The notes: a model not told the origin generated them from the letters alone. 64,000 bases of DNA from an uncultured Acidobacteriota bacterium (GCA_963741955.1 CAVUKB010000005.1:1056001-1120000); one strand, 5' to 3'. Positions 1-62,517 are shown, numbered from the stretch's first letter. Numbers and translations are program-made.

Positions 1-287
1 TCGCCATGCGGATGGTATTTGCCGAGCACGTCGCCGACCGTGCGCGCCGATTTCTTGTACTTCGATCCGGCGCTCAATCCAAGCTCCGACATCGCGTAGA
101 TGATCCGTCGCTGCACGGGCTTCAGTCCGTCCGCGAGATGCGGCAGCGCGCGGTCGAGGACCACGTACATCGAGTAATCGAGGTACGCCTTCTCCGCGAA
201 ACTCGCCACCGGAATCCGCTCGAAGTCCATCGGCGGAGGCGGTGGCGGCATTTTCCTGCGACTCTTCGATGCAGATTTTCTAGGCAT
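1..287 (-). CDS. parC: DNA topoisomerase IV subunit A, 5' part only (runs off window start)
   Basis: Not in the ORF track. Manual translation from ATG at 287 gives MPRKS...[37 protein letters not shown]...[18 protein letters not shown]. Lies directly downstream of parE. Confidence 0.93.
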
Positions 288-328
288 GATCGTTCGTGAG
301 TTGCGAGTTGTCGGTTGCGGTTGCAACC

Positions 329-2221
<1,893 letters not shown>

Positions 2222-42689: not shown

Positions 42690-45600
42690 GCTTCAATGGG
42701 GCCGCTCCCTTTCGGAAGCGGAAGGGCATCTGGAATCAGGAGCAGGGTCTACTCCAGCGAATGCTTCAATGGGGCCGCTCCCTTTCGGAAGCGGAAGGGG
42801 CGCGGGCGTCGGCGCCACGTTCGGCGCGCACTGTCGAGCTTCAATGGGGCCGCTCCCTTTCGGAAGCGGAAGGTTCAAAAAGGTAGCGTTAACCTCGATG
42901 GCAAGCTTCAATGGGGCCGCTCCCTTTCGGAAGCGGAAGGCAGCCGCGCGCTGAATCGGCGGCAACTCCCTCTCGGCTTCAATGGGGCCGCTCCCTTTCG
43001 GAAGCGGAAGGTTCAAGTCCTGGCGCGCCGCATCAGCGCCGGTGATCTCGCTTCGATGGGGCCGCTCCCTTTCGGAAGCGGAAGGCCGAGCAATTAACCA
43101 ACACAGTCGCACCGTGGTGATCCTGGCTTCAATGGGGCCGCTCCCTTTCGGAAGCGGAAGGTTTGCAACTCGGCGTCGATCGCCTCGCCGTAAATGGCTT
43201 CAATGGGGCCGCTCCCTTTCGGAAGCGGAAGGTTCAACTCTCGCTCGGAGGCGGGAAGGAAAAGCTGCGCTTCAATGGGGCCGCTCCCTTTCGGAAGCGG
43301 AAGGTTCTTCCAACTCGGCGTCGTTCGCCTCGCCGGCCAAGGCTTCAATGGGGCCGCTCCCTTTCGGAAGCGGAAGGGCTCTTCCATATTTGCTGCAGCT
43401 GTTGCATGAGACCCTGCTTCAATGGGGCCGCTCCCTTTCGGAAGCGGAAGGTCTCGGAGCGGAACAACAGGATCATCGCGATCGGCAACCCGCTTCAATG
43501 GGGCCGCTCCCTTTCGGAAGCGGAAGGGTCGACGAGGTCCTCGAGGTCGTCGCGCCACACGAAGCTTCAATGGGGCCGCTCCCTTTCGGAAGCGGAAGGG
43601 CACGGCGAGGCGTTTTGCCTGATGACCTACCAGTGCGAGCTTCAATGGGGCCGCTCCCTTTCGGAAGCGGAAGGTTCGCCGCGGTGGCGCGGTTCTACGG
43701 GTTCTCACACAACGCTTCAATGGGGCCGCTCCCTTTCGGAAGCGGAAGGGCGGGGAGGCAAAATGCCAGCGCTTCAGCTTCGGGTGGCTTCAATGGGGCC
43801 GCTCCCTTTCGGAAGCGGAAGGGCGTCGATTCGTTCTCGACGAACGTTGGCGGTGCTGAATGGCTTCAATGGGGCCGCTCCCTTTCGGAAGCGGAAGGAG
43901 CGCCAGATCAACGATCTCGAAGCAATCATGGGGATCGCTTCAATGGGGCCGCTCCCTTTCGGAAGCGGAAGGAGGGGACAGTCGAGAAACTCAAGAACGC
44001 AGGGGTACTGCTTCAATGGGGCCGCTCCCTTTCGGAAGCGGAAGGTTCCTGACGGCTGACTTCCTTCGACAGAAGGTCTTCGCTTCAATGGGGCCGCTCC
44101 CTTTCGGAAGCGGAAGGCTCCGATGAACTGCTCATGGATGCAATGGAGAGCGGTAACGCTTCAATGGGGCCGCTCCCTTTCGGAAGCGGAAGGGGGGCAC
44201 TCATGGGCAAACTCCCACTCCGCGCCGATGCTTCAATGGGGCCGCTCCCTTTCGGAAGCGGAAGGGTTGATTCTTGCCGACGAAGCCGAACCGGAACTCC
44301 GGCTTCAATGGGGCCGCTCCCTTTCGGAAGCGGAAGGTGTCCAAGTGATGGGCCTCGACCTCATGCCGTGTCGCGGCTTCAATGGGGCCGCTCCCTTTCG
44401 GAAGCGGAAGGCGCTCGATCAGCTTCGCTTGAGCGCGCCAGGGCGTGGCGCTTCAATGGGGCCGCTCCCTTTCGGAAGCGGAAGGGGCGCCAGGCGCGGG
44501 AAGTCCCGCATTCCCCCCCGCGCGCAGCTTCAATGGGGCCGCTCCCTTTCGGAAGCGGAAGGTGGCCCTGCAGATCTCCCGGCTCATCCCGACGCTGCAA
44601 GCTTCAATGGGGCCGCTCCCTTTCGGAAGCGGAAGGTCGAGTCCGGGATCGAGGCGCAGAAGACCGGATTCGATGCTTCAATGGGGCCGCTCCCTTTCGG
44701 AAGCGGAAGGGTCGAGGAACTCCCGATCGAGGATGCGAGCCGAGATCGCGCTTCAATGGGGCCGCTCCCTTTCGGAAGCGGAAGGAAGGTCGAGAGGATG
44801 CGCTCGCCGTTCGGCGGTTCGATCGCGCTTCAATGGGGCCGCTCCCTTTCGGAAGCGGAAGGATCGGCGAGATCGAGTTCCGGAACATGGCACCGGGGCT
44901 GCTTCAATGGGGCCGCTCCCTTTCGGAAGCGGAAGGTTCCGCCGATGTAGAACAGTCGGTCGCCGTCCGATCGGCTTCAATGGGGCCGCTCCCTTTCGGA
45001 AGCGGAAGGGGACCAGCCATCGAGCTACCGTCGCATCTATCCGAACGCTTCAATGGGGCCGCTCCCTTTCGGAAGCGGAAGGAGCCCTTCAGGACGGAGG
45101 CCGCTCTCGCCGCTCACGCAGCTTCAATGGGGCCGCTCCCTTTCGGAAGCGGAAGGGCGTCGGGACGCCATCGAGATCTGCGCCATGTCGCTCGTGCTTC
45201 AATGGGGCCGCTCCCTTTCGGAAGCGGAAGGTCACGTTCGCGGATAGTCTGTGGGCGGAGTGTCTGATTGCTTCAATGGGGCCGCTCCCTTTCGGAAGCG
45301 GAAGGAGGCATCGAGATCAGGACTGGGATGCGGTAGCAGCAACACGCTTCAATGGGGCCGCTCCCTTTCGGAAGCGGAAGGCTGCGACCGGTCTGCGAGG
45401 GTGGCTGGACCGGCTGGGCTTCAATGGGGCCGCTCCCTTTCGGAAGCGGAAGGCTGGCACGGTTCCGGCCCCATCGCATCGCGGGCACGTCTCCGCTTCA
45501 ATGGGGCCGCTCCCTTTCGGAAGCGGAAGGCGAAGCTCTGTCTCGCCACCCTGATCGCGTACAGCACTCGCTTCAATGGGGCCGCTCCCTTTCGGAAGCG

Positions 45601-48600
45601 GAAGGCGGCGACACCGGCACGATGACGTCTCCGATGCTGGCAGAGCTTCAATGGGGCCGCTCCCTTTCGGAAGCGGAAGGGTTGCGCTACAGGTCAGCAA
45701 CCAGGTCGACGTCACGCTTCAATGGGGCCGCTCCCTTTCGGAAGCGGAAGGGCGTTTATACGGGCTCGATCGGACGCCCATACACGCGCTTCAATGGGGC
45801 CGCTCCCTTTCGGAAGCGGAAGGTTCGGTATGGCCTCTCCTCTCAGCGATGCTCACGCAGCAGCTTCAATGGGGCCGCTCCCTTTCGGAAGCGGAAGGGC
45901 GTCACGTTGCGTCACTGGCGGAGAAGGTTGTCGGGCTTCAATGGGGCCGCTCCCTTTCGGAAGCGGAAGGCCTCTGCGCCGTGATTCTCGTCTTCGACCC
46001 TGAAGCTTCAATGGGGCCGCTCCCTTTCGGAAGCGGAAGGCCGCTCCGACGCAACGGAGCGCTTCCCATGCCTGTTCAGGGCTTCAATGGGGCCGCTCCC
46101 TTTCGGAAGCGGAAGGTAGACGTCGCAAGCTGGCACCTCAGAGAATGGCTGCCCGCTTCAATGGGGCCGCTCCCTTTCGGAAGCGGAAGGTTACGATCCG
46201 CGGGGCACGTCCCAAACCATGGTGCAACCGCTTCAATGGGGCCGCTCCCTTTCGGAAGCGGAAGGATGTATCGCGCTGTGCCGTGCGTCGCATCGTGGGA
46301 GCTTCAATGGGGCCGCTCCCTTTCGGAAGCGGAAGGAACGAGCAGAACCTCATGGAGTCGACCCGGTACGGGCAGCTTCAATGGGGCCGCTCCCTTTCGG
46401 AAGCGGAAGGATACGTGCTACTGACCTTACTCTTTTGGCTTGAATCGACGCTTCAATGGGGCCGCTCCCTTTCGGAAGCGGAAGGAATGGACGACCCGCG
46501 AACAGCCGGGAAGGGCAACTACGAGCTTCAATGGGGCCGCTCCCTTTCGGAAGCGGAAGGGCCGAGATCGGACGAGCTCGAAGCATTGACGTCGATCGGC
46601 TTCAATGGGGCCGCTCCCTTTCGGAAGCGGAAGGCGGCGACGCAGCTCGCGCATCGACGCTCCTGACGCTCATGCTTCAATGGGGCCGCTCCCTTTCGGA
46701 AGCGGAAGGACGACGTTGTACCAGACATGATGACGAACGTCGACATGGGGCTTCAATGGGGCCGCTCCCTTTCGGAAGCGGAAGGATGCCCGATCGGGCG
46801 GAAGGGAGCGACGGGAACATGCGGCTTCAATGGGGCCGCTCCCTTTCGGAAGCGGAAGGATGCTCCGCGCACTGCGTGCAGCGCCTCGCCAGAGCGGCGC
46901 TTCAATGGGGCCGCTCCCTTTCGGAAGCGGAAGGCCCCGCTGCGCCGGCGTCGATCGGGGCTTCAGCGTCGGAGCTTCAATGGGGCCGCTCCCTTTCGGA
47001 AGCGGAAGGCTCGGGTCAGACTGCTCGAAGGTCAGGAAAAGTGCGATGCTTCAATGGGGCCGCTCCCTTTCGGAAGCGGAAGGTCGCTGACGAACTATCG
47101 GTCAGCAAACAGCTGCTGTGCTTCAATGGGGCCGCTCCCTTTCGGAAGCGGAAGGCTCCGCGCGTACGGTAAGCGCTGCGACCGAAAGACTGCGCGCTTC
47201 AATGGGGCCGCTCCCTTTCGGAAGCGGAAGGGCCAGCATCGATCTGCGATCGTGCAGCCGACGTCGAGCTTCAATGGGGCCGCTCCCTTTCGGAAGCGGA
47301 AGGTCGCTGCGATCGCGAGTCTGTCCGCGGGCGCTAGTGCTTCAATGGGGCCGCTCCCTTTCGGAAGCGGAAGGTGGCATCGACGACAGCGCAGACGCGG
47401 AGCAGCATGCACGCTTCAATGGGGCCGCTCCCTTTCGGAAGCGGAAGGTCGCCGATGCTGATCGACAATCTCTGCTTACCGTCGACGCTTCAATGGGGCC
47501 GCTCCCTTTCGGAAGCGGAAGGCGGCCGGACAGTCCTATGTCTGGACGCACCTGTGCCGTAGCTTCAATGGGGCCGCTCCCTTTCGGAAGCGGAAGGCAG
47601 CGCGAATTTCATCATGCTCGCTCGGGCAAGAGGTGTGGGCTTCAATGGGGCCGCTCCCTTTCGGAAGCGGAAGGCTTTAACTATCTGCCACGAAGAATCG
47701 GCAGAATTTCCGCTTCAATGGGGCCGCTCCCTTTCGGAAGCGGAAGGTGCGGGAAGCAACTCGGGAGCAACTCGGGAATGCGGGCTTCAATGGGGCCGCT
47801 CCCTTTCGGAAGCGGAAGGGCTTCGTGAGTCGCATCCCCTCGGGGAAGATCTTCGCGCTTCAATGGGGCCGCTCCCTTTCGGAAGCGGAAGGGGTTGCTC
47901 CCGAATGAGACGGAGTACAGGTGCGGCGGCTTCAATGGGGCCGCTCCCTTTCGGAAGCGGAAGGCAAGAGTCTGGAAGTGTTCGACGAGTCTCGGCCAGC
48001 CCCTCGCTTCAATGGGGCCGCTCCCTTTCGGAAGCGGAAGGTCCGACGGCGAAATCGCATCGCAGTATACCGGAATGACGCTTCAATGGGGCCGCTCCCT
48101 TTCGGAAGCGGAAGGATGCCACGAATCTCGCGACGGACCTTGTGACGGATGCCGCGCTTCAATGGGGCCGCTCCCTTTCGGAAGCGGAAGGATGTGCTGG
48201 GAGCCGGTGACGCTTGCTCACACCCCGCAGCTTCAATGGGGCCGCTCCCTTTCGGAAGCGGAAGGCCGGTTGAAGGACAGGATGGAAGACATCTCGGGCG
48301 TGGCTTCAATGGGGCCGCTCCCTTTCGGAAGCGGAAGGCGACCGGCTCTACCTTCTTCAATACTCCTCGTGCCATGCTTCAATGGGGCCGCTCCCTTTCG
48401 GAAGCGGAAGGTTCGGCTTCGATTTGACCGATCGTCATGAATGCCTGGCGCTTCAATGGGGCCGCTCCCTTTCGGAAGCGGAAGGCTCGCTTCGTGGGAT
48501 GCGATCGCCGCGAAGCGGAAGCTTCAATGGGGCCGCTCCCTTTCGGAAGCGGAAGGCGAGTCACCATTCCGGCCTTGCACTTTCCCCAGCTATCGCTTCA

Positions 48601-48704
48601 ATGGGGCCGCTCCCTTTCGGAAGCGGAAGGACAGCAGCCCTTAAACTACTGTCGAATTTAGCCACCTCGCTTCAATGGGGCCGCTCCCTTTCGGAAGCGG
48701 AAGG
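42690..48704 (-). CRISPR. CRISPR array, ~82 repeats and ~81 spacers (manual count), type I-G-like repeat
   Basis: 36-bp repeat GCTTCAATGGGGCCGCTCCCTTTCGGAAGCGGAAGG; minus strand ends ATTGAAGC and has a CCGCT...AGCGG hairpin; spacers about 31-41 bp; leader on the cas2 side. Confidence 0.98.
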
Positions 48705-48921: not shown

Positions 48922-49215
48922 TCAGAAGATCTTCGGGCCGGGAAGCTCGAAGTTGCGAGGCCTGCCGAGGACCTCGATGCCGCCCACCACCGCGGGACTG
49001 CTCTTCCCCAGATCGATGATCAGCACCTGGTCCTCGTGATGATGAATCAGATCGTCGATCCGGCTGCGCAGCACCGCATGCTGCTCCGCCGTCAGATCGC
49101 AGCGGAACACGCTCAGCTGCACGTGCTCGCCGAACCCCTGCATCTCGCGGAAGATGCGCCGCCATCGCTTCGGCGAGGAAATGTCGTACGTCACCAGATA
49201 ACAGCGCAGCTGCAT
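48922..49215 (-). CDS. cas2: Cas2
   Basis: YLVTYDISSPKRWR, GEHVQLSVFRC, DQVLIIDLG. Confidence 0.95.
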   Translation of the reverse strand: MQLRCYLVTYDISSPKRWRRIFREMQGFGEHVQLSVFRCDLTAEQHAVLRSRIDDLIHHHEDQVLIIDLGKSSPAVVGGIEVLGRPRNFELPGPKIF

Positions 49216-49222
49216 CGGCGCC

Positions 49223-50893
49223 TCACCGGATCCGGTAGGGAACGTACCGCTCGATCTCCCCCATCAGCCACCGCGCCACCAGCCTAGCCTCGATCATGAA
49301 GAGCCGCCGGTACGCACAGCGGTAGCCGAAGAGCGGATGCGTCACCTCGATCGCCATTCTCCGCTCGTACGCCTCCAGCATCCGTCTGCGTGCGGCGGTC
49401 TTCAGCAGCATTCCCCCTTCGACTTCGTAGAAGTCCGAAGGCGCGATCTCTCCGTTGTTGATCACCCCGATCACGGTGCTGTCGGCGACCACGGGCCGGA
49501 ACGGCTCCATCAGGTCGAGCGCGAGCGCCGGCTTCCCGTACTTCGGCGTGTGATAGAAGCCCATCATGGGATCGAATCCGATCGTCTCGAGCGTGGTGAC
49601 CCAATCCTTCGTCAGGAGTGAATACGCGAACGAGAGGAGGGCGTTCACCCGATCCTTCGGCGGACGGCGGTTGCGGCCGTCGAGCTCGAACCCTCCGAGG
49701 CCGTCCCGCGCTTTCAACATCGACGCGAATCCCGCGTAATAGATCCGAGCCGCGGAGCCTTCGATACCGAGGAGCTCTTCGAGATCGTTCGAACGGGCGG
49801 CGGCCGCAGCGAATCCCTTGAGAATCTCGAGATCCCTCTCGTCGACGCTTCCATTACGCCGCAGCATCACGCGGGAGTTGTCGATCTTCGCCGCCACGAT
49901 CTCGCGCGCGACATCCACGCGACGCCCGGCATCCCGCGCCGCCGCGAACTGCTCGATCCGGAGCTCCACGTTCTTGTGCGTCGCACCACGAGTGATTCCG
50001 TGCAGCCATCCCGTCCCGCTCATGTGCGCGATCAGGATTCCGCGCCGGAGGCACTCGCGAAACACCGAGGGGGACGCCTGCGCTGCGCCGACGAGCACGA
50101 GCTGCGAGACGCGCACCAGAGGAACGCTCCCCTCCTCCTTTCCCTCGCGCATCACACGGAGGCGCGATCCGCAGAGACGCACCACGCTCCCCGGCTCCTG
50201 CACGATCAGCGGTTCCGTCCCGTCGTTAACCACCGCGATCGGCCTCACTTTCTCCGCGCCCCTCCGAAGGAAGTTCACCTCCTCGGGGAGACAGATCGAC
50301 ACGAGCGAGCAGCGCGGGCATTTCGGGTTGTCTTCGAGCGGCGGCGGAATCCGGTCGTTCGCGAGCGTGGCGCGCATCGCTCGGAGGAGGTCCATCGTCC
50401 GCGCGACGAGATCGGCCGTGAAGCGGACGCGCACCCGATCGCGCGACGCGTTGAAGTAGAGAAGGCCTTCGTTGCATTCGTACCCTTCCTCGCGGAGAAG
50501 GAGTCCCTGCGCGCAGAGCTGAACCCGCTCCGGCTCCCACGCTCCTGCAGCGACCGGCGGGCGCTTGCCGCGCTTGTAGTCGACGGGACGGACGCGTTTC
50601 CCGTCGCGCTCGATGAGATCGATGACGGCGGTGAGCCCGAGGGTCTCGCTGGTGAGGTGAACTGATCGCGTGTGAAGCGTGACGCGCGAACCCTCCGGCC
50701 GGTCGACGTTGCGGTGGACGTGTTTTCCCTCGATCGTCTCGACGTTGTCCTTCCACTCCCCCTGGGTCCATTCGAGATACGCGAGGCGCGGACAGTATGT
50801 GAATTCGTTGAGCATCCGCGCAGGAATGTGCGCGGGGACGCTCGTCAGTGGCTGCGGCTTCGGTTCAGGCGGCTCGAGGATCGTTTCGCTCAT
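49223..50893 (-). CDS. cas1: Cas4-Cas1 fusion (type I-G hallmark)
   Basis: YCPR, VDYKRG, QLCAQ, CPRCSLVSIC (Cas4); GIEG, RRPPKDRVNALLS, GFYH, LDLMEPFRP (Cas1). Confidence 0.95.
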   Translation of the reverse strand: MSETILEPPEPKPQPLTSVPAHIPARMLNEFTYCPRLAYLEWTQGEWKDNVETIEGKHVHRNVDRPEGSRVTLHTRSVHLTSETLGLTAVIDLIERDGKRVRPVDYKRGKRPPVAAGAWEPERVQLCAQGLLLREEGYECNEGLLYFNASRDRVRVRFTADLVARTMDLLRAMRATLANDRIPPPLEDNPKCPRCSLVSICLPEEVNFLRRGAEKVRPIAVVNDGTEPLIVQEPGSVVRLCGSRLRVMREGKEEGSVPLVRVSQLVLVGAAQASPSVFRECLRRGILIAHMSGTGWLHGITRGATHKNVELRIEQFAAARDAGRRVDVAREIVAAKIDNSRVMLRRNGSVDERDLEILKGFAAAAARSNDLEELLGIEGSAARIYYAGFASMLKARDGLGGFELDGRNRRPPKDRVNALLSFAYSLLTKDWVTTLETIGFDPMMGFYHTPKYGKPALALDLMEPFRPVVADSTVIGVINNGEIAPSDFYEVEGGMLLKTAARRRMLEAYERRMAIEVTHPLFGYRCAYRRLFMIEARLVARWLMGEIERYVPYRIR

Positions 50894-51724: not shown

Positions 51725-51794
51725 ACGGTCCGGAGCATACCTCGGCGATCCGGGGGCTCTACGGTGGGTGGAATTCGGCCGTGGCACCGTCAAT

Positions 51795-51830
51795 CTGTCG
51801 GACAGGGTCGACAGGTCCGACAGGTCCGAC
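51795..51830. repeat. 9-mer tract (GACAGGTCC) inverted relative to 50951-51020
   Basis: Directly visible upstream of the four-helix gene. Confidence 0.8.
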
Positions 51831-51837
51831 GCGCGGT

Positions 51838-52250
51838 TCACGCCGTCGCGCGCTTCTTCATCGCCTCGTCGAGAAACGCGGCGAACGACTCGCTGGAGAG
51901 ATCGAAATCTTCTTTCATTCTCAAGCGGATCTTGTCGGTCCTCTCGTTGCGGCGTGAAACATTCACGGAGCTCGGAAGCCCTAATTTTTCCGACAGTGAT
52001 TCGTCGGAATCGTATCTCGCGGCCCCGAGTCGTTCGGCGAGAGCTGCGCCTTCGAAGGCCTCCATTTTCCCCGCTTGATCTCGATGATCACGGCGTTCCC
52101 CTGCGGGTCGAGTGCGAGAAGATCAACGGTCTCGGACGTCGGGAATGATCACCTGTCGTCCGATCACCAGGAGCGGTTCACGGAGAATAGAAGGATCTGC
52201 GGCGATCCGCTCCTCGAGCCTCTCTTCGAGGAACTTCTTGGAGAGGCACA
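51838..52250 (-). pseudogene. NucS/DUF91-like PD-(D/E)xK endonuclease remnant
   Basis: LEERIAADPSILREPLLVIGRQVIIPDVRDR*, then a frameshift near 52125 to DLLALDPQGNAVIIEIKRGK, then a short C-terminal ORF. Confidence 0.65.
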
Positions 52251-52486: not shown

Positions 52487-54010
52487 CTAGCTCGTTACGG
52501 GGCGAAAAAGACCCAATCCGAACGTGCTCGAGTGGCCCAGGCGGATCGGTCCGATTACCTGAGAGGGGAATATCAGCCGAACGAACTGCCCACGCCGGTC
52601 ACCGATGAACCCCTTCCTTCCTCCTTCCCGACGGGGAACGTGAACCGCTACCCACAGAGGATCGTCAACCCTCTCGACCACCACGTCGTCCGCGGCTGCG
52701 ACACCGCGCAGGCGCAGCTCGCGTCGAACTTGAGCCGCGATCGACTCGCTCTCGCGCTCTTTACCGCCGCGAAGATGGTGGCGGGGTGGGACATAGGGAG
52801 TGACGGACTCCCAGATCCGAGAGCCGATGCCATCGAACCCTGGCGGCGGCGGGACGGCGCGATCGAGGGGAATCAGCCTGACCTTCCACGCATCATTATC
52901 CGGGCCTGCGACGGCCCAGGAGAGATCGCGTGCCGCTGCGCAAAGCATCGCTTCTTGCTCCGGTTCATCGAATGCCCGGCGATCACGCCACGCGAGCAAC
53001 CGCGTCGGCTGCCCGTCCTCCAACCATACGAAATACTCGACATGGCGGTGCCCCTCGAGCGGGGCGCCGTCGGCGTCCTTGCCAGTCATCTCCGCGATAC
53101 CTTCTCGGATGCTGCGATCGGCACGACTCCAGGCCGGGTTCGGGACTCCGGTCTTCAGCCTGAGAAGCTCTCGAACCACAGCGCCTCGGAACCGCGAGGT
53201 GAGCCGCACGATCGCGCGCGGATCCGGCGCGACGTTCCACCCAATTGCGAACTGGATCAGGTGACAATCGGGCCGATGCACTGGTACGCGTCTGCGTTCG
53301 TGCGAGGCAGAGCGCGGTGGTCGAACCGCGTAGAGCCATTGCGCGCCGGGAGGGACGGCTCGCTTCACGGCTTCAGGATTGTCGGTCGTCCGCTCGATGT
53401 CGTCGCGCGTGGCTTCCTCGAGCGGCGACAGCACGGGGACGGCACCTGCCGTGCGCTTGTCGACTAGCGTGCAGTTAGGTGTTGGGGTGTCGTCTGGCGA
53501 ACCGACGACGCAAATGCGCGTGAGTGTCTCGGCGCGCCCGAACCAGGTCATGCGCTCGAGGCACTGTGCGAGCAGTGCGCGGAGCTCCTCGGTCCAGTCA
53601 TCACCTTCGAGGAACCACCACACGGGCGACTCGGGAGGGACGCACCAGTAGTTGTCCTGCACGAGGCTCGTGCCGTAGGTGCGCGCTCCCGCCTTCTTCT
53701 TCTCCGCCGGTCGCCAACCGAACTCGGTCGGATGGTACTGCCTCAGCGGGCTTCCCTTGCGCGCATCCGGTGGGAGATGGAACGCATACGTGCTCCTGCA
53801 CAGCGCGGCCTGCAGTTGTTCGAGGTTCGCGAGGTCCGGCTGTTCCTCCATCTCACGCGCCCACTGGTACCAGCGCGCGGTGACTGCGCGAACCAGGCGC
53901 CATGGGCTCGGCGGCCACTCGCCGTGCGGGTCATCAAACGGATTCACGCGCCACGGCGTGGCGTGGTAACGCCCCAGCGGGAACTCTTGTCGGAGGACGA
54001 TTTGCATCAC
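52487..54010 (-). CDS. csb2: Type I-G Csb2 (Cas5/Cas6 fusion)
   Basis: GRYHATPW, EWPPSPWRLVRA, WFGRAE, WESVTPY, GHSSTFGLGLF G-loop. Confidence 0.92.
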   Translation of the reverse strand: MMQIVLRQEFPLGRYHATPWRVNPFDDPHGEWPPSPWRLVRAVTARWYQWAREMEEQPDLANLEQLQAALCRSTYAFHLPPDARKGSPLRQYHPTEFGWRPAEKKKAGARTYGTSLVQDNYWCVPPESPVWWFLEGDDWTEELRALLAQCLERMTWFGRAETLTRICVVGSPDDTPTPNCTLVDKRTAGAVPVLSPLEEATRDDIERTTDNPEAVKRAVPPGAQWLYAVRPPRSASHERRRVPVHRPDCHLIQFAIGWNVAPDPRAIVRLTSRFRGAVVRELLRLKTGVPNPAWSRADRSIREGIAEMTGKDADGAPLEGHRHVEYFVWLEDGQPTRLLAWRDRRAFDEPEQEAMLCAAARDLSWAVAGPDNDAWKVRLIPLDRAVPPPPGFDGIGSRIWESVTPYVPPRHHLRGGKERESESIAAQVRRELRLRGVAAADDVVVERVDDPLWVAVHVPRREGGRKGFIGDRRGQFVRLIFPSQVIGPIRLGHSSTFGLGLFRPVTS

Positions 54011-55110
54011 GCGCTCTCTTCCGGGCCCTCGTCATCTTCAGGGCTGCTGGTGCTGTCGGCCTGACCTTCACGATACAGCTCTTCACGCGGCCAGAACACG
54101 TCGGTAATGGACTCCTTGCTGAAGCCGGCGTTGGCGATTGCTGTCCGGATGTCGACTTCGATCCCGACTTCCTTGCCACCGCTCTGAATCGTCGTGCAGA
54201 GGAGGTAGCAGCCGGACCTGTAGCGGAACGGCGACTCGAGGAGCCTTCGGATCTTCCACAGCGCGATAGCGACGAGCAACTCCTGTTGCTTGTCCGAGAG
54301 ACCCAACGTGGAGCCGCCCGTCTTTCGCCCAAAGGACCGGATCAGACTGACGTCCAGGACGAAAGTGGCCCGAATCGATTCAGCGGTGGCGTCATCGACC
54401 GCGAAGATCGGCTGGCCGGATGTCGTCTTTCCGAGCCGGTCGAACTTCACGCCGGAGCGATCGACGCGCCCCGCGCCGAACGCCTCGAGGTGCGCCGTCA
54501 GCGCGCGCGGGATCTTGATCTGCCACTGTGGGAACAACACCCCATGAACGAGCGAGTTAGGGTCGGCTTCAAAGATCGTCTTGAAAACATCCCACCACTT
54601 TGCAGGCGGCGGATGGGCCTTCGAGCTTCCGGGCAGGACGATGCCGAACCTGGTGACGAGGTCGTCCTCGAACGTGTCGTCACCCTTCGCTCCGCCGTTC
54701 CTCAAAGGCACGCCGTCGAGGAAGTACGAGGACGCGATGCGGTGGCCTTCGGTGAGGCTCGTAACGACGACCTCGCGCTCGTTCGTGGGTTCCTTACCTT
54801 CCGTCGTGTTCGTGACGCACCGGAGGTACGGCAGACCATCGAGATCCTCGACGAGGTCGAGGTCGTGCGCGCTACGCTGGCAGACCGACTCGAGATGGTT
54901 CGCCATGCTCGCGGCGCTGTCGACGATGCAGACGTTCTCGGTGCCGCCGTCCTTGCGCGGAGCCTTGTAAATCACATGACCGATCTCCGGGAACCCCGCA
55001 GGCTGGAATCGGTCACCAACGATCGGCTCGAGCGTCGCCGTCAGGACGAGCGGCGACGCCCCCTTCAATACCTCGGCCGGGGTAAGTTTCTTCTTCTCTG
55101 CTTCAGACAT
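54007..55110 (-). CDS. csb1: Type I-G Cas7 (Csb1)
   Basis: DRFQPAGFP, VDSAASMANHLE, EGHRIAS, DPNSLVHGV, RSGVKFD, RSGC. Confidence 0.9.
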   Translation of the reverse strand: MSEAEKKKLTPAEVLKGASPLVLTATLEPIVGDRFQPAGFPEIGHVIYKAPRKDGGTENVCIVDSAASMANHLESVCQRSAHDLDLVEDLDGLPYLRCVTNTTEGKEPTNEREVVVTSLTEGHRIASSYFLDGVPLRNGGAKGDDTFEDDLVTRFGIVLPGSSKAHPPPAKWWDVFKTIFEADPNSLVHGVLFPQWQIKIPRALTAHLEAFGAGRVDRSGVKFDRLGKTTSGQPIFAVDDATAESIRATFVLDVSLIRSFGRKTGGSTLGLSDKQQELLVAIALWKIRRLLESPFRYRSGCYLLCTTIQSGGKEVGIEVDIRTAIANAGFSKESITDVFWPREELYREGQADSTSSPEDDEGPEESA

Positions 55111-57340
55111 TTGCTTCGCCTCCTTGTCGCCGGCGTCGAGGACGAAGCCAGCGCTCGAACAGGACCGTCCGATCGCGGTCCGGAATGCTGAACAACAGGG
55201 CCGCGGCGAGGCGGTCCGGATCATGTGCGTTCCAGGGGACATCGAATGACGCGACGCGCGCGCCGGCCATCGCGTAGCGGCTGCTCGCGAGCCGTGTCGC
55301 CGCGTCGAGGTTGCCGGATCGGATCAGCGTGACGAGCGAGCGCGCCGCTTCCGTGGTGCGTGCGCCGGTCGCCTCCGTAAGAAGATCGCTCGGCGAGAGG
55401 TCGCGGACGACCAGGGGACGCTGGTCGACGAGGGGCTGCATCAGCCCGAGGAGGACCAGTTCACCTTCCGCTCGCGGAGCCTGGACCTTCCCATGGATTA
55501 AACCGCGGGCCTCCTGCGGGATCCTTCTCCAGTCGAAGAGCGCGAGCCGCGAGAGCCATGCTGAAAACAGCGACTCGTCGACGTCGGCGGCGAGCCACTG
55601 ATGCACGTGCGCCGTCGTAGCGGGTAGAGGTGAGCGGCCGGAAGGGAGTTTCGTTTGCGTGGCGTCCAGCCTGGCTTCTTCGAGAAGTCTTCGCGAGAGC
55701 ACTGAACCCATGACACGAGCAAGCTTACCCGGCCCCCATACCCATCGCGCCGGAGCGATCTTCGCGTGTTCGAACCATCCTGGCTTGGTGGTCCAGTCGT
55801 ACTCGTACTTCCCGTTCCTCTCCCTGGCCCACTCCACACCAAAGCGAAACGCCGCAAATGGAAGCGCAGCAGGAAAGGCCGACACGAGTGACAACGCGAG
55901 CCGCGCCTCGGCTCCGGCTTGCTCGTCCGCAAACAGCGATGGCAGCCATTCGAGTGGCAGCGGCTCCCATCGAACCTTGCCCTCGCGGAAGCTGCGATTG
56001 CGGTCGATGCGATTCAGTGCAGCGGTGATCGCGTCGAGCATCTCGATGGCCGCCTCGGAGCGGCCGGGATCTGCCGCGACGTCGAGGAGGGCCGCTTCGA
56101 TGGGACCACGGAGTCCCACGAAGCGCTTGCCATCGCGGGGAAAGCCGCGCTGTTCGATTAGTGCGGTGACGCGTTCGAGCGTGAGAGAGGTGGAGACACT
56201 ACTCCCACCGGCACCAGCATCGAGAGCGAAGCGAGCTTCCAGGCGCGGTTCGAACGTGTTGACGCTGGTAGTCCTGCCGAGCGTGAAGCGGCGAAACTCG
56301 CTGACGCCCGCATCTACGCCACGCTTTCGAATCGCCGTCGCGAATTCGGCGGGCGTGAGTGATCCACGTCCATGCAGTTCGGCTCGGCCGCGCAAAAACA
56401 GCGCGCTCGCTTCAGCGAGCGTCATCGGTCGGGACCACAACGGGGTCCAGATCTCGCCACGGAGACGATCGGCCTCCTTTTCAGCGCTCGCAGCGATGGG
56501 CTGGGTCACGAAGGGGAACGCACCGACGGCACGCGTGCGAGCACCGAGGCGTCGCGATGCACCGCCTGCGAGAAACGCCAATCCCTCGCAGGCGAGCACC
56601 ATCGCCCAGGGAGAGATCAGCCCCTCGCGCGCAGGGGACTGGCCGCTGTTGTAGAGCTTCGTCGCTTCGCTGAACCAGGAACCGGCGACGAGCCCGTCGA
56701 CGAGCCAAGAGACCGTACGGCTTACGAGCAGAGCCTCGAGCTCACTACGATTTCTCTGCAATCTGGCTGGGGCTTCCCGTTCGTACGTGCCGAGGGCTTT
56801 CTTCTCACGTTTCTCGCGTGCGGCTTTCTGCTTGTCGGTTTCGTCCTTCTTTGGCTCCCTGGCCCCGGGAGCCGCTGGAGAGAGCGCTTCGATCGCCTTT
56901 GCCCACCCATTCGAGAATGCGCGCTTCCCCGCGTTTCCTCCGCTGCCGAAAAGGGGATTGAAGCTCACGCGCGCATGTGGCACCGCGTGCGCGGCGAAAA
57001 CCTCGAGTTCCCGCTCCTCAGCAGAGGCTTGCCAGAGAGCGAGCGGCAGTCCTGACTTCGCCTTCGTTCCCCGCTTCTGCTTCTCATTCCAGCGTCGATC
57101 GTACGTGGTCCATGCGCGTTCGCTGGCAACACGCACGAGCTCGTCGAGCAGTGCATCCAGCGTCGGCGGCCCACCGACTACGTGCAGCACGTCGTCGCGC
57201 CACGCAATGCGCGTGCTCGGCCACTTCCGGCTGAGCACACGAAGGAGGCCGAGGGACGCGAGGTAGTTGCCGAGGCTGTCGGGCGAGAGGCCGGGCAGCG
57301 GGAGAGCTGTAAGGCGAGGTTCTCGTCGGAGCGCGGTCAT
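55103..57340 (-). CDS. csx17: Type I-G large subunit Csx17 (Cas8g)
   Basis: LGNYLASLGLLR, LFGSGGNAG, SPWAMVLACEG, FPF, EIWTPLW, RGVDAGVSEFRRF. Confidence 0.88.
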   Translation of the reverse strand: MTALRREPRLTALPLPGLSPDSLGNYLASLGLLRVLSRKWPSTRIAWRDDVLHVVGGPPTLDALLDELVRVASERAWTTYDRRWNEKQKRGTKAKSGLPLALWQASAEERELEVFAAHAVPHARVSFNPLFGSGGNAGKRAFSNGWAKAIEALSPAAPGAREPKKDETDKQKAAREKREKKALGTYEREAPARLQRNRSELEALLVSRTVSWLVDGLVAGSWFSEATKLYNSGQSPAREGLISPWAMVLACEGLAFLAGGASRRLGARTRAVGAFPFVTQPIAASAEKEADRLRGEIWTPLWSRPMTLAEASALFLRGRAELHGRGSLTPAEFATAIRKRGVDAGVSEFRRFTLGRTTSVNTFEPRLEARFALDAGAGGSSVSTSLTLERVTALIEQRGFPRDGKRFVGLRGPIEAALLDVAADPGRSEAAIEMLDAITAALNRIDRNRSFREGKVRWEPLPLEWLPSLFADEQAGAEARLALSLVSAFPAALPFAAFRFGVEWARERNGKYEYDWTTKPGWFEHAKIAPARWVWGPGKLARVMGSVLSRRLLEEARLDATQTKLPSGRSPLPATTAHVHQWLAADVDESLFSAWLSRLALFDWRRIPQEARGLIHGKVQAPRAEGELVLLGLMQPLVDQRPLVVRDLSPSDLLTEATGARTTEAARSLVTLIRSGNLDAATRLASSRYAMAGARVASFDVPWNAHDPDRLAAALLFSIPDRDRTVLFERWLRPRRRRQGGEANV

Positions 57341-58610: not shown

Positions 58611-59563
58611 TGCGCACCTCCAACCGCGAGGACTTCGAGGCGGCCCATGCCGCGCGTGCCCATGCCGCCGATGCCAAGCGCTGCGAGCAGCGGGTACGCC
58701 TTGGCGACGACATCATGGACCTGCTGCGCGTTCGTCACCGTCGGTGCGTTGCGGCCCTCCTTGAAGTGGCGTGGATCGCGGCAGGTTACGTCCCACGTGA
58801 GTACCGCCCCGCGCGGAATCGCCTCGTACGTGAAGAGAGCGCGGTCCTCCGCAGCGCCCGTCGCCGGGTTGATGGCCACCGAGGTGCGTACCTCAAGGTT
58901 GCTGTTGACGACGTGGCCAAAGAGCTTGTCGGAGACGAGCACGAGCCGCTCGACGACACGCAGGTCCTTGTACAGGTCCTCGCGCACGCCGAAGGCCTTG
59001 ACCGCGTCCTTCACGGCTTGCAGCCCCGACCACGACTCCGCTTCGAGCTGCAGCCACCCGAGGTTGATGGGCCCCTTCTTGCCGCCACGCTGGGCCTTGT
59101 TCTGGCTCACGTCGTCGACGGTCGCGCTCGCACCCACGAAGCGCAGCGCGCTCGGCGAGGTCACCCACAGCGGGCCCTCGCGCGACGCGACTGGAAAGAG
59201 CACCACCTGCGCATCGCTGAACGCGGCGAGACCCGCGAACTTCTTGTGGCCGAAGACAGCGTTGATCGGCCCCGCACCGTCGTTGTTCGCCGAGCCCTGG
59301 CCCGCGTCGTCGGGGTAGTACTGTCGCGTATCGTTCGGCGTACGAGCGTCCTCGAGCGCCATCGCCACGTAAGCGCGGTGGACACCCGCGAGGCTCGAAC
59401 CAGGAATCTTCGGGATGCGCGTGACGGGATCGCGCACGATGGTGTTGTCGACGCGCCCGAGCCGCGCGCCTCCCGTCCCGATGTGAATCGGGTCGATCGC
59501 GATCCCAACGGTGCGAAATACTTGAAAACTGCACTGCTTCGTCTGCTGTTGGCTATTGCTCAT
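58607..59563 (-). CDS. cmr4: Cmr4 (Cas7 RAMP)
   Basis: PIHIGTG...VDNTIVRD, PKIPGSSLAG, FSDAQVVLFPVAS, ALFTYEAIP, GGMGTRGMG. Confidence 0.9.
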   Translation of the reverse strand: MSNSQQQTKQCSFQVFRTVGIAIDPIHIGTGGARLGRVDNTIVRDPVTRIPKIPGSSLAGVHRAYVAMALEDARTPNDTRQYYPDDAGQGSANNDGAGPINAVFGHKKFAGLAAFSDAQVVLFPVASREGPLWVTSPSALRFVGASATVDDVSQNKAQRGGKKGPINLGWLQLEAESWSGLQAVKDAVKAFGVREDLYKDLRVVERLVLVSDKLFGHVVNSNLEVRTSVAINPATGAAEDRALFTYEAIPRGAVLTWDVTCRDPRHFKEGRNAPTVTNAQQVHDVVAKAYPLLAALGIGGMGTRGMGRLEVLAVGGAQ

Positions 59564-62517
59564 GGGGTCACTCCGATCGTCTGCTTGAGTACGTGCAGGT
59601 GCCAGCTCAAGACACGCTCGAGCAGGCCATCACGGGCTGCTTGTTCAAGGTCCTGTAGCTCCCGACCTCTGGCGTTCCACTCGTTGGCGAGCACTGCGTG
59701 CACCCAGTCGTTCCACGCTGCCTCGTCCAACGCGCCGTCGGAATCGGTCCAGCGCTCGCGCGCTTCGCGCAGTGACTGCTCGACCGCGCGGGCTGCCGTG
59801 GGGCTCGGCACGATCCTGCGAACCTGCTCCCAGATCGTACGGCGTCGGTCCCATTCGGACAGCGGATGCACCTGCACCGGCTCGAAGCGGCGAGCGGTCG
59901 AGTCGAGGAACAGCGACGCGAAGCGCGAAGGCTCGACGCAGACCTCGTCACCGAGCTTGAGGTCCGCGGCACGTCGATACACGACGGTAGTGCCATCGGG
60001 CCGAGGCGCGGTGAAGTCGCGTGGCTCGCGCTCCGCGCCGCCGACGGCGAGGTTCGGGTAGTAGACATCGTCCCGACCGTCCGCGAGTTGCGCAGGCACT
60101 TCAACGTCTTCGTGTCTCTGGCCGGGGCGTTCGAACGATAGCGTGGTGGTTCCTGATTGCGTCACGGCGTGCGCGACGCGCCATTGCTCGACACCGCGTG
60201 CTCCCATGTCGTCCTCCACGTTGCGCGTGGCCTCGATGACCGCCTGAAACGGCGTCTTGCGTGGGAAGCCGACCACGCCGATGCTCAGCGGAAGGCGGTC
60301 CCACACGCGCGCCATCTCCTTGCGCCACTTCGTGATGACGTGCCCCACGCACACCGCCTCGGCTCCGAGAGGAACGAGCACCCGGAAGCGCTCGGGGTTC
60401 TCTTCGAGCACGATGAGCGGACGATACGAGGCCAACACGCGCTCAGCGGTGGTGACACTCTCGATGGCGAAGCGCCGCCGCTGCCCATCGTCGCCTCGCG
60501 CCTCGAACTGCATCCCCGTAAGAATCGTCGCGTCTCCGTCCGGACCAAGCACGCGCGCGAGGTTGCAAACCGTCACGAAGTCGCTCGAGCGGCGCAGGAT
60601 CTCGAACGGCGCGTTCGGGGCAGTCGGCAAGGGTCCGGCGTAGACCTCGCCGACCCGCAGACCATTCGTGTCGCCCGAGAGCGTAAGGCTCAGCCGCTGG
60701 GTGCGAGTGCCGCCGTCGCCCGAGACGAGCTGGCGGAACTCATCGAGCGCTTCGGCAAAGAACGCACGCGTCGTGCGCCAGAAGCGATGCACGCGCCCCG
60801 GCGAGGCGTTCTTGCGAAAAAGCTGGTGCGTCAGCCAGGCGGCACGGGTCGTGTCGTCGAGCGAGGACCACGCGGGAGCGCCTGCGCGATCTTCGACGAC
60901 CTTCTGAAAGAAGTCCTCCAGCGCGGTCTCGTGGGCGAAGCCGTCGTTCAGAGTCTCCAGGACTGCATCCGACAGCCTGCCTTTATTCAACATCGGCGAT
61001 TTGACGAAGCCTTCGACGTGGGTGCGGAGCGAGTCGCGCGGCGCGTTCGCGTCGATGGCCGTAAGCGAAGTGTTGTTCGCCCGCCACTCGACCACGCTCT
61101 GCGCCCGCAGCGAGTCGACGTGCGTGCCATCGAGCCAGCCTTCAAGGCCTAAGCTAAACGTCAGCAGGGCGACGCGGTCGTTCGCGTCGGCGACCTCGCT
61201 GATCCAGATGGTGTCGCCGCCGTTCTTCTCCCACGCCGCGCGCCGTCCCGTGCGCCGCTCATAGCAGCTCTTCGAGACGTCCTGCTTCCGGTCGCTCTCG
61301 TTGTTCGACTGCGCGCCCGCGCGAACCAAGGACACCGGGCAGACGTGCTTGCCCGTACCGCCGTCGCTCGCGATCGACCACGCCCGGTGAACCGGTACTT
61401 CGAGCACGCGGCGCGCCTCGGCCAGCTCGCGCGACATCGCGACAAAAGAGCGCGTCGATGACGAGAGCCGTACCAGCGGCGGCGTCTCGAAGGCGTGCGA
61501 TCGCGCGAGTTCGTCGACGCGCATCTCGATGCCGGTGCGCAACGTCTCGGCCAGCGTGTCGTCCACACTGTGTTTGCCATCGAGGCGATGACCGGGAAAC
61601 GTAAACGAGATCGCACGCTCGTCGCGATAGACGCAGGCACCGAGGGCGAGGTCGACCTCGATGAACGCGCAGACCTCATGGAAGAACGCAGCGATCGCGT
61701 CGCGCGTGCCTGTCCAGTCTCCGATGCGCACGGCGCGGGACTCGTAGTGCTCCGCGCCGAGGCCCACCGTGAGCACGCGCCAGCGCGTGTTGGCCTTGCT
61801 ACCGTTGCCCGTTTCAAACGAGGTGCCCAAGAGCACAGCGCCCGCCGCTGCAGCCTTGAATAGGGCGGATGCAATGAAGGACTGGTCCCACAGCGTGACG
61901 TCGTTATTGGGGACGCGCGTCTCGGCGAGCGTGCTCGCAAACGCCTCGCGCAGCCAGCCCGACGGGCCGATTGCAGCGTCACGCCACGTGCACCATTCGG
62001 CGAGGTGCGTCGGGTCCTTCACCCGCGCAGCGAGACCGTCGATGAGCGCACCGATCTGCGTCTCCGTGTTCGACCAAGCATTCTTGGCAAGGATCGCAGG
62101 CGGGGTGGAGCCCAGAAGGTTCCGGACCGGGCGACCGAACGCGGTCGCGAGCCACGTCTGCCCCGTCGGCTGCTTCTGGTAGTCGGCGGGCGTGTTCTTC
62201 TCGATGCCCGAGGCCATCGTATGCGCAGCCTGCAGGAGGCCGAGCACGCCATCACTACGCTGTCGGTGCTTTTCGAAGAGGTCGTTGGGCGAGATGGTCT
62301 GCGTTCCGAACGACGGCAGCGTCCCGAACTTGCTGTACAGGTTCGACGCCCACGTCAGCTCGTTCCACGTCGTGCCACCCGAGGTCGCGTTGGACGCCTG
62401 CTGCCGAACGAAGTCGGGGTGCGCCTTGCCCGCCATGTGCAGCCAGCCGATGGCCTCGCACGCGAGGAGCGCAGCGCGCTGGTCACGCAGGGGCTGGAGC
62501 GGATCGTTCGCGCTCAT
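59560..62517 (-). CDS. cas10: Cas10 of Csx11 / type III-C type, catalytic motifs degenerate
   Basis: ETRVPNNDVTLWDQ, VYRDE, TIWISEVADANDR, KNASPGRVHRFW; position between cmr6 and cmr4. Confidence 0.82.
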   Translation of the reverse strand: MSANDPLQPLRDQRAALLACEAIGWLHMAGKAHPDFVRQQASNATSGGTTWNELTWASNLYSKFGTLPSFGTQTISPNDLFEKHRQRSDGVLGLLQAAHTMASGIEKNTPADYQKQPTGQTWLATAFGRPVRNLLGSTPPAILAKNAWSNTETQIGALIDGLAARVKDPTHLAEWCTWRDAAIGPSGWLREAFASTLAETRVPNNDVTLWDQSFIASALFKAAAAGAVLLGTSFETGNGSKANTRWRVLTVGLGAEHYESRAVRIGDWTGTRDAIAAFFHEVCAFIEVDLALGACVYRDERAISFTFPGHRLDGKHSVDDTLAETLRTGIEMRVDELARSHAFETPPLVRLSSSTRSFVAMSRELAEARRVLEVPVHRAWSIASDGGTGKHVCPVSLVRAGAQSNNESDRKQDVSKSCYERRTGRRAAWEKNGGDTIWISEVADANDRVALLTFSLGLEGWLDGTHVDSLRAQSVVEWRANNTSLTAIDANAPRDSLRTHVEGFVKSPMLNKGRLSDAVLETLNDGFAHETALEDFFQKVVEDRAGAPAWSSLDDTTRAAWLTHQLFRKNASPGRVHRFWRTTRAFFAEALDEFRQLVSGDGGTRTQRLSLTLSGDTNGLRVGEVYAGPLPTAPNAPFEILRRSSDFVTVCNLARVLGPDGDATILTGMQFEARGDDGQRRRFAIESVTTAERVLASYRPLIVLEENPERFRVLVPLGAEAVCVGHVITKWRKEMARVWDRLPLSIGVVGFPRKTPFQAVIEATRNVEDDMGARGVEQWRVAHAVTQSGTTTLSFERPGQRHEDVEVPAQLADGRDDVYYPNLAVGGAEREPRDFTAPRPDGTTVVYRRAADLKLGDEVCVEPSRFASLFLDSTARRFEPVQVHPLSEWDRRRTIWEQVRRIVPSPTAARAVEQSLREARERWTDSDGALDEAAWNDWVHAVLANEWNARGRELQDLEQAARDGLLERVLSWHLHVLKQTIGVTP

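Follow-up and report, generated by a model that had tools for sequence, protein, structure and literature searches.

The locus described here belongs to the genome of an uncultured Acidobacteriota bacterium (GCA_963741955.1) and lies within a stretch of 64,000 nucleotides of contig CAVUKB010000005.1 (positions 1056001-1120000), which was analysed as a whole and is referred to below as the window. It carries a CRISPR array, the CRISPR-associated (Cas) genes of a complete type I-G system and, among these, a cassette of six genes for a subtype III-C effector that includes a Cas10 protein of 985 amino acids. A sequence-only reading of the window had concluded that this Cas10 had lost its HD and GGDD motifs and half of its zinc-finger ligands, and had proposed that it was reduced to a scaffold for a complex that only cleaves RNA. 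The open reading frame (ORF) is a standard Cas10c, or Csx11, inside a subtype III-C effector operon. Most of its altered motifs are ordinary for its family, the loss of zinc ligands is specific to one lineage, and the cassette is nested within the type I-G operon behind cas3g, an arrangement which that reading had overlooked.

The genes cmr1-cmr6-cas10c-cmr4-cmr5-cmr3 stand in the order typical of subtype III-C, between cas3g and cas8g of the type I-G operon (Table 1). The cas10c frame contains no stop and overlaps both of its neighbours, cmr6 and cmr4, by ATGA, which bears out the earlier view of an intact and coupled gene. The same overlap occurs at the cmr1/cmr6 and cmr3/cas8g junctions, and seven junctions from cmr1 through csb2 consist of ATGA or GTGA overlaps. 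Since cas3g precedes cmr1, cas8g follows cmr3 and the junctions overlap, the III-C cassette is inserted into the I-G operon with overlapping stop and start codons on both sides and, because it lies behind cas3g, the locus taken together retains a gene for a DNA nuclease. The type I-G gene set is complete, with cas3g, cas8g/csx17, csb1, csb2, a cas4/cas1 fusion, cas2 and the array. On the minus (coding) strand the array repeat ends in ATTGAAGC, and it fits the 36-bp 'G-type' repeat with the tail TTGAAGC that is given for myxobacterial I-G systems in a part of PMC11237760.

Several neighbouring features were also recorded. A gene of 306 amino acids lies between csb2 and cas4/cas1 (50921-51841, minus strand); its product combines a four-helix bundle (TIGR02436, TIGR04258 'suffix') with a topoisomerase-type C4 zinc ribbon and a serine/aspartate-rich tail of SDxSDx repeats, and yielded no PADLOC match. 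Two tandem repeats occupy the interval from the last ordinary gene to the array's distal end, one with a 272-bp unit present 3.1 times (39792-40615, 89% match) and the other with two copies of a 143-bp unit (41781-42064, 99% match). Past the window end, and upstream of cas3g, there are genes for an HsdM methylase (PF02384, 372 bits) and a RhuM-family protein (L002, 7139-10010); as type I restriction HsdM and RhuM-family genes flank the CRISPR locus, the region is a defence island.

Table 1. Genes, motifs and repeats of the composite I-G/III-C locus. Positions are counted from the first nucleotide of the window; alignments A1 and A3 are described in the text.
Feature	Position	Strand	Evidence and remarks
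cas3g, 939 aa	outside the window, upstream of cmr1		TIGR02621 598 bits; ends 4 bases into cmr1
cmr1, 309 aa	63311..64000	-	TIGR01894 54 bits (cut-off 28.65); Pfam RAMPs; start 240 bases past the window end
cmr6-like RAMP gene, 266 aa	62514..63314	-	PADLOC Cmr6 198 bits; Pfam RAMPs
cas10c/csx11, subtype III-C effector large subunit, 985 aa	59560..62517	-	stop-free ORF; TIGR02682, PADLOC, AlphaFold2 model
H27-M28 in GWLHMAGK, at HD dyad site	62434..62439	-	translation and A3 columns
H99 in LQAAHTMASGIEKN, conserved His of former HD pocket	62221..62223	-	invariant in A1
D211-Q212 in TLWDQS, at DH site	61882..61887	-	DQ 62/114 and DH 20/114 in A3
degenerate treble-clef zinc finger, C393-P-V-S396 ... 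S415-K-S-C418	61264..61341	-	2/4 Cys kept
N707-P708-E709-R710, putative GGDD site of Palm2	60388..60399	-	Cmr2 profile alignment, model hairpin, Csm1 range arithmetic
cmr4, backbone RNase subunit, 318 aa	58607..59563	-	TIGR02580 116 bits (cut-off 87)
Cmr4 D39 in GRVDNTIVRD	59447..59449	-	opposite Asp 26 of chain 4wnz_A (P. furiosus Cmr4) in the alignment
cmr5, small subunit, 129 aa	58221..58610	-	PADLOC Cmr5 'CAS-III-C effector_SS' 118-121 bits; no Pfam or NCBIfam match
cmr3, 295 aa	57337..58224	-	PADLOC Cmr3 237 bits
cas8g/csx17, type I-G large subunit	55103..57340	-	TIGR04113 479 bits
csb1/cas7g	54007..55242	-	PF09617 94 bits; TIGR02570; probable true start an internal Met near 55110
csb2, Cas5-Cas6 fusion	52487..54010	-	TIGR02165 97 bits; PADLOC Cas56g 229 bits
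cas4g/cas1g fusion	49223..50893	-	NF049935 720 bits
cas2	48922..49215	-	PF09827 66 bits
CRISPR array, 82 repeats of 36 nt, 81 spacers	42690..48704	-	81 exact repeat copies, 1 with one mismatch

Comparison with Cas10 profiles, structure prediction and estimation of selection, which the sequence-only reading had proposed, were carried out. The cas10c product scores 281.3 bits against the NCBIfam Csx11 model TIGR02682, which passes the curated cut-off of 248.95, and 392 bits against the PADLOC Cas10c model ('CAS-III-C effector_LS') over residues 7-978; no Pfam model matches Cas10c, Cmr5 or Cmr3 of the locus. An AlphaFold2 model, generated from an alignment of 114 sequences, has a predicted local distance difference test score (pLDDT) of 93.5 and a predicted template modelling score (pTM) of 0.94. 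When it was compared with the PDB using Foldseek, all of the top 50 matches were Cas10 chains (best E-value 3e-8, identity 8-11%), Csm1 and Cmr2 being the best, while VIA-align matched it to Csm1 6ifl_A with a Z-score of 18.3 and a root mean square deviation (rmsd) of 4.0 over 467 aligned residues, and to 6ifn_A with a Z-score of 18.1 and an rmsd of 3.8 over 582. Model residues 13-980 cover residues 1-756 of the Csm1 chain, and with this coverage the protein is predicted to keep the whole Cas10 domain set, from the HD-fold domain at the N-terminus through the two palms to the helical domain at the C-terminus. A profile search of the PDB with the Cas10c family gave weak matches alone (E 0.025-0.04), to the HD domain of Cas3 and to Cmr2.

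The states of the active-site motifs were compared across alignment A3, which comprises 114 rows: the query, 23 relatives of 48-87% identity (out of 120 listed) and 90 representatives (out of 150 listed). The sample is non-random and proportions within it are not population estimates. At the HD dyad the translation gives H27-M28, in WLHMAGK, where HD-bearing relatives have LLHDxGK, and at the DH site it gives D211-Q212 where they have TLWDHS, so that both substitutions singled out earlier are present as described. In A3 the dyad reads HM in 59 rows, HD in 35, HL in 10, HN in four, HQ in three, and HE, AD and a gap in one row each. A third element of the pocket, H99, falls on the H in the AGHH motif of a Cas3 HD domain (8g9u_P) in a weak profile match (E 0.025), and most HD-bearing relatives have CD at this site, within CDxxDSGxDK. 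The three elements co-vary as sets in A3, HM occurring with AH or GH and with DQ, and HD with CD or AD and with DH.

The sequence of Cas10c contains no GGDD or GGDE string anywhere in its 985 residues, as had been noticed before. The position of the missing motif was sought in three ways. In a weak profile alignment (E 0.03) of the family with P. furiosus Cmr2, the Cmr2 segment GDDVLAILPVDKALE stands opposite PERFRVLVPLGAEAV of the query, with G-D-D-V-L-A-I-L-P of Cmr2 placed on P-E-R-F-R-V-L-V-P, which would put GGDD at N707-P708-E709-R710. The AlphaFold2 model agrees with this placement in having a beta-hairpin at 702-707/710-716, followed by a helix (717-734), a strand (744-752) and a second helix (757-772). 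The VIA ranges, model 14..776 against chain 2..641, are also in agreement, as they bring model residue 709 approximately opposite Csm1 residue 574; here the S. thermophilus Csm1 numbering was presumed to be H15/D16 and D575/D576. No row of A3 has GGDD at the equivalent columns. All 114 rows fit x-P-x-x-F, P708 is kept in 112, and a GGD[DE] string occurs at unrelated positions in four. Two other candidates were discarded: ASPGR (571-575) as the replacement of GGDD, which was dropped for NPER on the profile alignment, the model and the Csm1 ranges, and GGDT (433-436) as a cryptic GGDD, since its Gly pair is not conserved (G in 22 and 27 of the 114 rows). Outside the classical motifs, the residues E441, D444, D817, R575 and R578 constitute a conserved charged feature that is near-universal (113, 113, 112, 113 and 113 rows, respectively) in HD-bearing and HD-less proteins alike.

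With HM in 59, DQ in 62 and GGDD in none of the 114 rows, the HM/DQ pocket and the dead palm are normal states of the Csx11 family and not private to the window gene, and HM/DQ is the commonest state in the sample. The notion that these losses are special to the window Cas10 must consequently be given up, except for the zinc cysteines. It had also been allowed that HM/DQ might be the normal state in active III-C Cas10 proteins; its commonness in the sample agrees with this, and on the side of activity the literature that was found contains no assayed protein. The degenerate cyclase palm, which had been taken as established for III-C, agrees with A3 and with earlier publications. A passage of Makarova 2011 (PMC3150331) refers to 'inactivated Cas10 (Csx11 subfamily)', parts of Hoikkala 2024 (PMC11229360) describe III-C as being without cyclase sites and known effectors and as having a recognisable HD in half of the cases, and Makarova 2025 (PMC12669027), in the portion concerned, places III-C among the subtypes with an inactivated cyclase. 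The inactive state of Csx11 is therefore already in print and is not new for the family.

The zinc finger differs in this respect. The four ligand positions between residues 393 and 418 read C393, S396, S415 and C418 in the window protein, so that half of the ligands are gone, as stated earlier. CCCC, in the arrangement CxxC...CxxC, occurs in 102 of the 114 rows, and a C4 finger is typical of the family and not defining. Eleven of the twelve other rows (CSSC, CTSA, CSSA, CSAC) form one clade that includes the query and has 99% local support, and the zinc-loss label of this clade needs one change on the tree; the twelfth, P0244 (CSSW), is unrelated to it. Some members of the clade have one Cys of the second pair and others none (…SKSA), which indicates a metal site in the process of being abandoned. 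Moreover, position 457, acidic in the conserved F-D-L strand that follows the finger, is Gly in the query and in seven of the ten other clade members. On these comparisons the loss of zinc cysteines is the only lineage-specific motif change in the window Cas10c, and of single origin. The loss of two ligands, and of three in some relatives, under purifying selection shows that at least one lineage can dispense with the Cas10 finger.

Selection was estimated as the ratio of nonsynonymous to synonymous substitution rates (dN/dS), using the Nei-Gojobori method, between Cas10c and six homologues of 69-79% identity (L088, L085, L087, L003, L089, L004). A seventh pair, with L005, was left out, with just 630 of 985 codons aligned. 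The L005 and L094 entries are one contig; the longest frame of its Csx11 gene aligns over just those 630 codons, and the gene may carry a frameshift or an assembly error. The overall ratios are 0.19-0.24, at dS values of 0.54-0.96 which are high yet unsaturated; they are 0.19-0.25 for the HD-fold domain, 0.17-0.27 for the zinc segment and 0.11-0.23 for Palm2, and lie within 0.11-0.35 for any domain in any pair. Purifying selection thus acts across all of Cas10c, with no sign of relaxed constraint. Conservation was examined in windows of 15 residues along alignment A1, which holds 24 relatives. The most conserved are, in order, 199-213, 564-578, 244-258, 17-31, 437-451 and 95-109. Three of these six correspond to segments of the former HD site: 199-213 (ETRVPNNDVTLWDQS), which ranks first and has 10 invariant residues, 17-31 (LLACEAIGWLHMAGK), which ranks fourth, and 95-109 (LQAAHTMASGIEKNT), which ranks sixth. 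The pocket with H27, H99, E106, D211 and Q212 is therefore the best-conserved part of a protein that is probably more than a passive scaffold, and yet such conservation could equally reflect contacts with Cmr3, CRISPR RNA (crRNA) or target RNA.

The change from HD to HM recurs within the family. On a FastTree phylogeny of the 114 rows the HD/non-HD label needs 12-14 changes; HM with DQ occupies two large clades of 36 and 24 rows with HD-bearing lineages between them, and a third, small pair with HM and AQ is nested among HD rows. The groupings were evaluated with IQ-TREE on 49 chosen rows and on columns from residue 240 onward, which leaves out the N-terminal domain. A constraint that unites all HM rows cost 484 log-likelihood units (approximately unbiased (AU) test, p 1.6e-5), and one that joins the two big HM clades cost 123 units (p 0.003). 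When the N-terminal domain was analysed by itself and stripped of the trait columns, the resulting tree, in which only 8 of 46 branches are well supported, kept the two large clades apart and placed the small one within HD rows. A first tree had been seen before the AU groups were named, and tree roots are midpoints. HD-to-HM seems to have arisen more than once, in at least two, probably three, separate clades. In the N-terminal tree, which is poorly resolved, the clades remain apart, and a domain swap through recombination of the N-terminal domain may nonetheless have caused this recurrence. The repeated change of Asp to Met together with His to Gln resembles an alternative state favoured by selection more than it does random decay.

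The III-C cassette was compared with 158 related loci, 80 from genomes and 78 from metagenomes, some contigs being common to both sets. Gene order and strand are identical in all 158, across many phyla. All six genes are present in 56 of the 80 and 47 of the 78 loci, the remainder being broken by contig ends. Among the 70 loci of at least 15 kb, 15 have an array and 55 have none, in agreement with part of PMC12669027, according to which arrays are absent from most III-C loci. Metagenome contig L088 repeats the nested order cas3g-cassette-cas8g-csb1-csb2-cas4/1, with 69-88% protein identity, and the cas3g-cmr1 junction is found again in L096, while I-G genes stand in tandem, upstream of the cassette, in L050, L115 and L118. 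A Cas3g-like gene lies within reach of the cassette in 8 of the 80 and 6 of the 78 loci. L158 (4693-6118), a relative of 44% identity, has a different Cas3-like gene, with 30% identity to Cas3g, that ends less than 1.5 kb before cmr1, which makes it a second and independent example of a III-C cassette with cas3 directly upstream.

In four close relatives of 73-79% identity (L003, L085, L087, L089) the cassette stands alone beside restriction, methylase or recombinase genes. In three of them the cassette is array-less and comes right after such genes: those for HsdS, an AAA_13 ATPase, a Schlafen/AlbA protein and HsdR in L003 (62-7771), for an SNF2 helicase with NOV_C and a DUF1156 methylase in L089 (892-8242), and for a serine recombinase in L085 (5473-7236). 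That the cassettes of close relatives directly follow other defence or mobility genes suggests that the array-less III-C cassette is mobile. In L087, of 79% identity, two small arrays of 5 and 7 repeats flank the cassette (6974-7274 and 15575-16031). Protein queries with Csx11 and Cas8g found neither in the other 126 genomes of the order to which the window genome belongs, and the composite I-G/III-C locus therefore looks to have been acquired horizontally as a unit.

The genome of the window, which is 99.1% complete, was searched for further CRISPR-Cas components. The single match to PF01867 (Cas1) is the cas4g/cas1g fusion, and the RAMP genes number just three, all at this locus. Cas6_C (PF01881) gave no match in the genome, with a control that matched in four genomes, and csb2 encodes the only Cas6-like enzyme that was found. 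No Cmr2-type Cas10 was found in the genome. A match to the Csm1 model (33.8 bits, below the cut-off, model positions 7-105) was rejected as a Cas10, being an HD-domain match in a frame of 531 amino acids on another contig. The genome yielded no further array with this repeat, and the III-C cassette has no array, Cas6 or adaptation genes of its own. As regards sensors of cyclic oligoadenylate (cOA), none of the 34 ORFs in the window matched a CARF, Csx1 or Csm6 family of Pfam, as the earlier reading had reported, the Cas proteins having also been run against NCBIfam and PADLOC; nor was CARF or SAVED found in these 34 ORFs and the 11 ORFs past the window end. A search for CARF with PF09651 was uninformative, its controls being silent. 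The lone SAVED protein of the genome is an HNH-SAVED effector of a cyclic oligonucleotide-based anti-phage signalling system (CBASS), which is paired with a cyclase of its own at a distance of 454 kb from the CRISPR locus. This CBASS pair, on contig C5 at 601-603.3 kb (L163, 6211-8332), consists of an oligonucleotide cyclase (PADLOC Cyclase, 241 bits) and the HNH-SAVED protein (483 bits). No cOA sensor accompanies the window III-C locus.

Given the absence of the HD dyad, the cyclase motif and a cOA sensor, and the retention of the Cmr4 Asp, cOA synthesis and the canonical single-stranded DNase activity of the HD domain are most likely absent from the window Cas10c. The Cmr4 residue, which the earlier reading had rightly picked out in GRVDNTIVRD, is D39; its counterpart, Asp 26 of P. 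furiosus Cmr4, is the residue that we take to be catalytic, and cleavage of target RNA by the Cmr4 backbone is predicted from this alignment. The explanation that we favour, and hold with reasonable though far from complete confidence, is that the locus encodes a signalling-dead III-C complex, devoid of the HD dyad, that uses I-G crRNAs and acts as a Cmr4-dependent RNA-cutting arm beside Cascade and Cas3g. The effector would be built from Cmr1, Cmr6, Cas10c, Cmr4, Cmr5 and Cmr3. As no other array and no Cas6 were found in the genome, its crRNAs would have to come from the single I-G array, presumably after their processing by Csb2, a protein that acts both alone and within Cascade according to part of a preprint (10.1101/2022.08.19.504415). 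Guided by these crRNAs, Cmr4 would cut complementary transcripts, while the I-G Cascade and Cas3g targeted DNA. The data directly show the family of the protein, its motif states, selection, the order of the genes and that the locus is the only one, and from these the missing activities, the common use of crRNAs and the cutting of RNA are inferred. The earlier proposal thus survives in its RNA-cleaving part, and the part concerning a mere scaffold is unsupported, because the former HD segments are among the most conserved, dN/dS is low and HD-to-HM is recurrent.

Several considerations weigh against the favoured explanation. The prediction of neither DNase nor signal derives from motifs, and the mapping of GGDD to NPER from the profile alignment and range arithmetic set out above. 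H27, H99 and D211 persist in the pocket, and E441, D444, D817, R575 and R578 in nearly all of the family, so that other chemistry is possible. The sharing of crRNAs with the I-G system is proposed for want of alternatives in the genome, and half of the spacers acquired by the I-G system would give crRNAs of the wrong sense for transcripts, which bears on the efficiency of an RNA-cutting arm. Finally, a literature search, which reached few subscription journals, found no experimental or structural study of III-C.

Among the alternatives, the one to which we accord some weight, although on balance we think it unlikely, is that the HM/DQ pocket is a functional, remodelled metal or ligand site, with H27, H99, E106 and D211 as candidates, and that it gives a target-activated output other than HD DNase or cOA. 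The conservation ranks of its three segments, the co-variation of its states as sets, the low dN/dS of the HD-fold domain and the occurrence of HM, with Q, in at least two, probably three clades, at the likelihood costs given above and with the N-terminal tree leaving the HM clades unjoined too, are all in keeping with it. Nevertheless, Met, Leu, Gln and Asn, which replace the Asp of the dyad, are not usual metal ligands, contacts with Cmr3, crRNA or target RNA could explain the conservation equally well, and the phylogenetic argument is tempered by AU groups named post hoc and by the few supported branches of the N-terminal tree. A broader version, in which the pocket is a convergent working alternative to HD with target-activated output and the I-G/III-C operon of this lineage travels as a single unit in which Cas3g may be shared in addition to crRNAs, strikes us as doubtful. 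It is improbable that the III-C complex, having lost its own HD nuclease, hands over transcription-coupled DNA destruction to the Cas3g helicase-nuclease. The overlap of cas3g with cmr1, the order conserved in L088, the cas3g-cmr1 junction of L096 and the Cas3-like gene of L158 would fit such coupling; most cassettes, however, are out of reach of any Cas3g-like gene, those of the closest relatives occur by themselves next to restriction-modification genes or a recombinase, and Cas8g, the normal partner of Cas3g, is in the operon, so that the I-G system alone explains the adjacency.

Two further possibilities concern the complex as a whole. It might be mainly a sequence-specific RNA binder or regulator that silences host or mobile-element transcripts and no immune nuclease, as the absence of both cOA and HD motifs, and hence of collateral output, would allow and as a passage of PMC10120712 proposes for an adjacent I-B + III-C locus. 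We give this little credence, since the catalytic Asp of Cmr4 is kept and 81 spacers between near-perfect repeats are as expected of active immunity. The reading of the cassette as a remnant, decaying or without function, in which the motif and Cys losses would be steps of erosion, is highly improbable: three classes of canonical residues are indeed gone and the L005 relative is incompletely aligned, but all six genes are intact and translationally coupled, no domain shows relaxed dN/dS, the zinc segment included, gene order is constant over the 158 loci and many phyla, and the AlphaFold2 model is confident.

With neither Cas10 output available, the way in which III-C systems protect a cell is an acknowledged puzzle, part of PMC7192623 stating that whether and how such systems give immunity remains to be learned, and the window locus does not solve it. 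It does provide a clean test bed, as searches of the 99%-complete genome revealed no CRISPR-Cas system besides it, with one array presumably feeding both the I-G Cascade/Cas3g and the III-C complex and with all effector genes in one coupled operon.

In comparison with canonical Cas10 proteins, Csm1 of III-A and Cmr2 of III-B (S. thermophilus 6ifn and 6ifl, P. furiosus 3w2w and 4h4k), the window protein has the same domain order, with an N-terminal HD-fold domain, two palms, a zinc finger and a C-terminal helical domain (VIA Z-scores 14.6-18.3), and the same partner set of Cmr3, Cmr4 and Cmr5. It differs in having 8-14% identity to them and about 230 additional residues, in reading HM for HD, DQ for DH and NPER for GGDD, and in being without a CARF or SAVED effector partner. 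The signalling-dead subtypes III-F, III-G and III-H, together with III-I which is without the domain, resemble it in an inactive or lost cyclase and in the lack of cOA-sensing effectors, as described in parts of PMC12669027 and PMC11229360. III-F generally retains the HD nuclease, according to the latter excerpt, whereas the window protein has neither motif and scores as Cas10c and not as III-F, III-G, III-H or III-I.

Composite loci that likewise place a type III effector without an adaptation module beside a type I system and array appear in portions of two publications, as the adjacent I-B + III-C locus in Fig. 4D of PMC10120712, for which regulation involving III-C was proposed, and as the rows 'Hybrid(I-G,III-B)' and 'Hybrid(I-G,III-D)' for myxobacteria in supplement 2 of PMC11237760. 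Unlike the former, the window cassette is inserted between cas3g and cas8g and not merely adjacent. The myxobacterial hybrids were compared by their row labels and not by gene order, and the nested layout may already be depicted there. The sharing of crRNAs by 'I-G' and III-B in P. furiosus was rejected as a precedent, that 'I-G' being the old name of its I-B system, as indicated in part of PMC7192623. The closest likeness is to the Csx11/Cas10c family itself, with which the window protein has in common a length of about 1000 amino acids, the full Cas10 fold, a score above the hidden Markov model cut-off, the absence of GGDD, an HM/DQ pocket found in 59 of the 114 sampled members, and the gene order of its cassette. 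It departs from the family in keeping two of the four zinc-finger cysteines, where 102 of 114 members have all four, in Gly457, which replaces the acidic residue of the conserved F-D-L strand, and in the nesting of its cassette within a I-G operon. Decay of the zinc finger and this nesting are the local twists of what is otherwise an ordinary member of an uncharacterised family.

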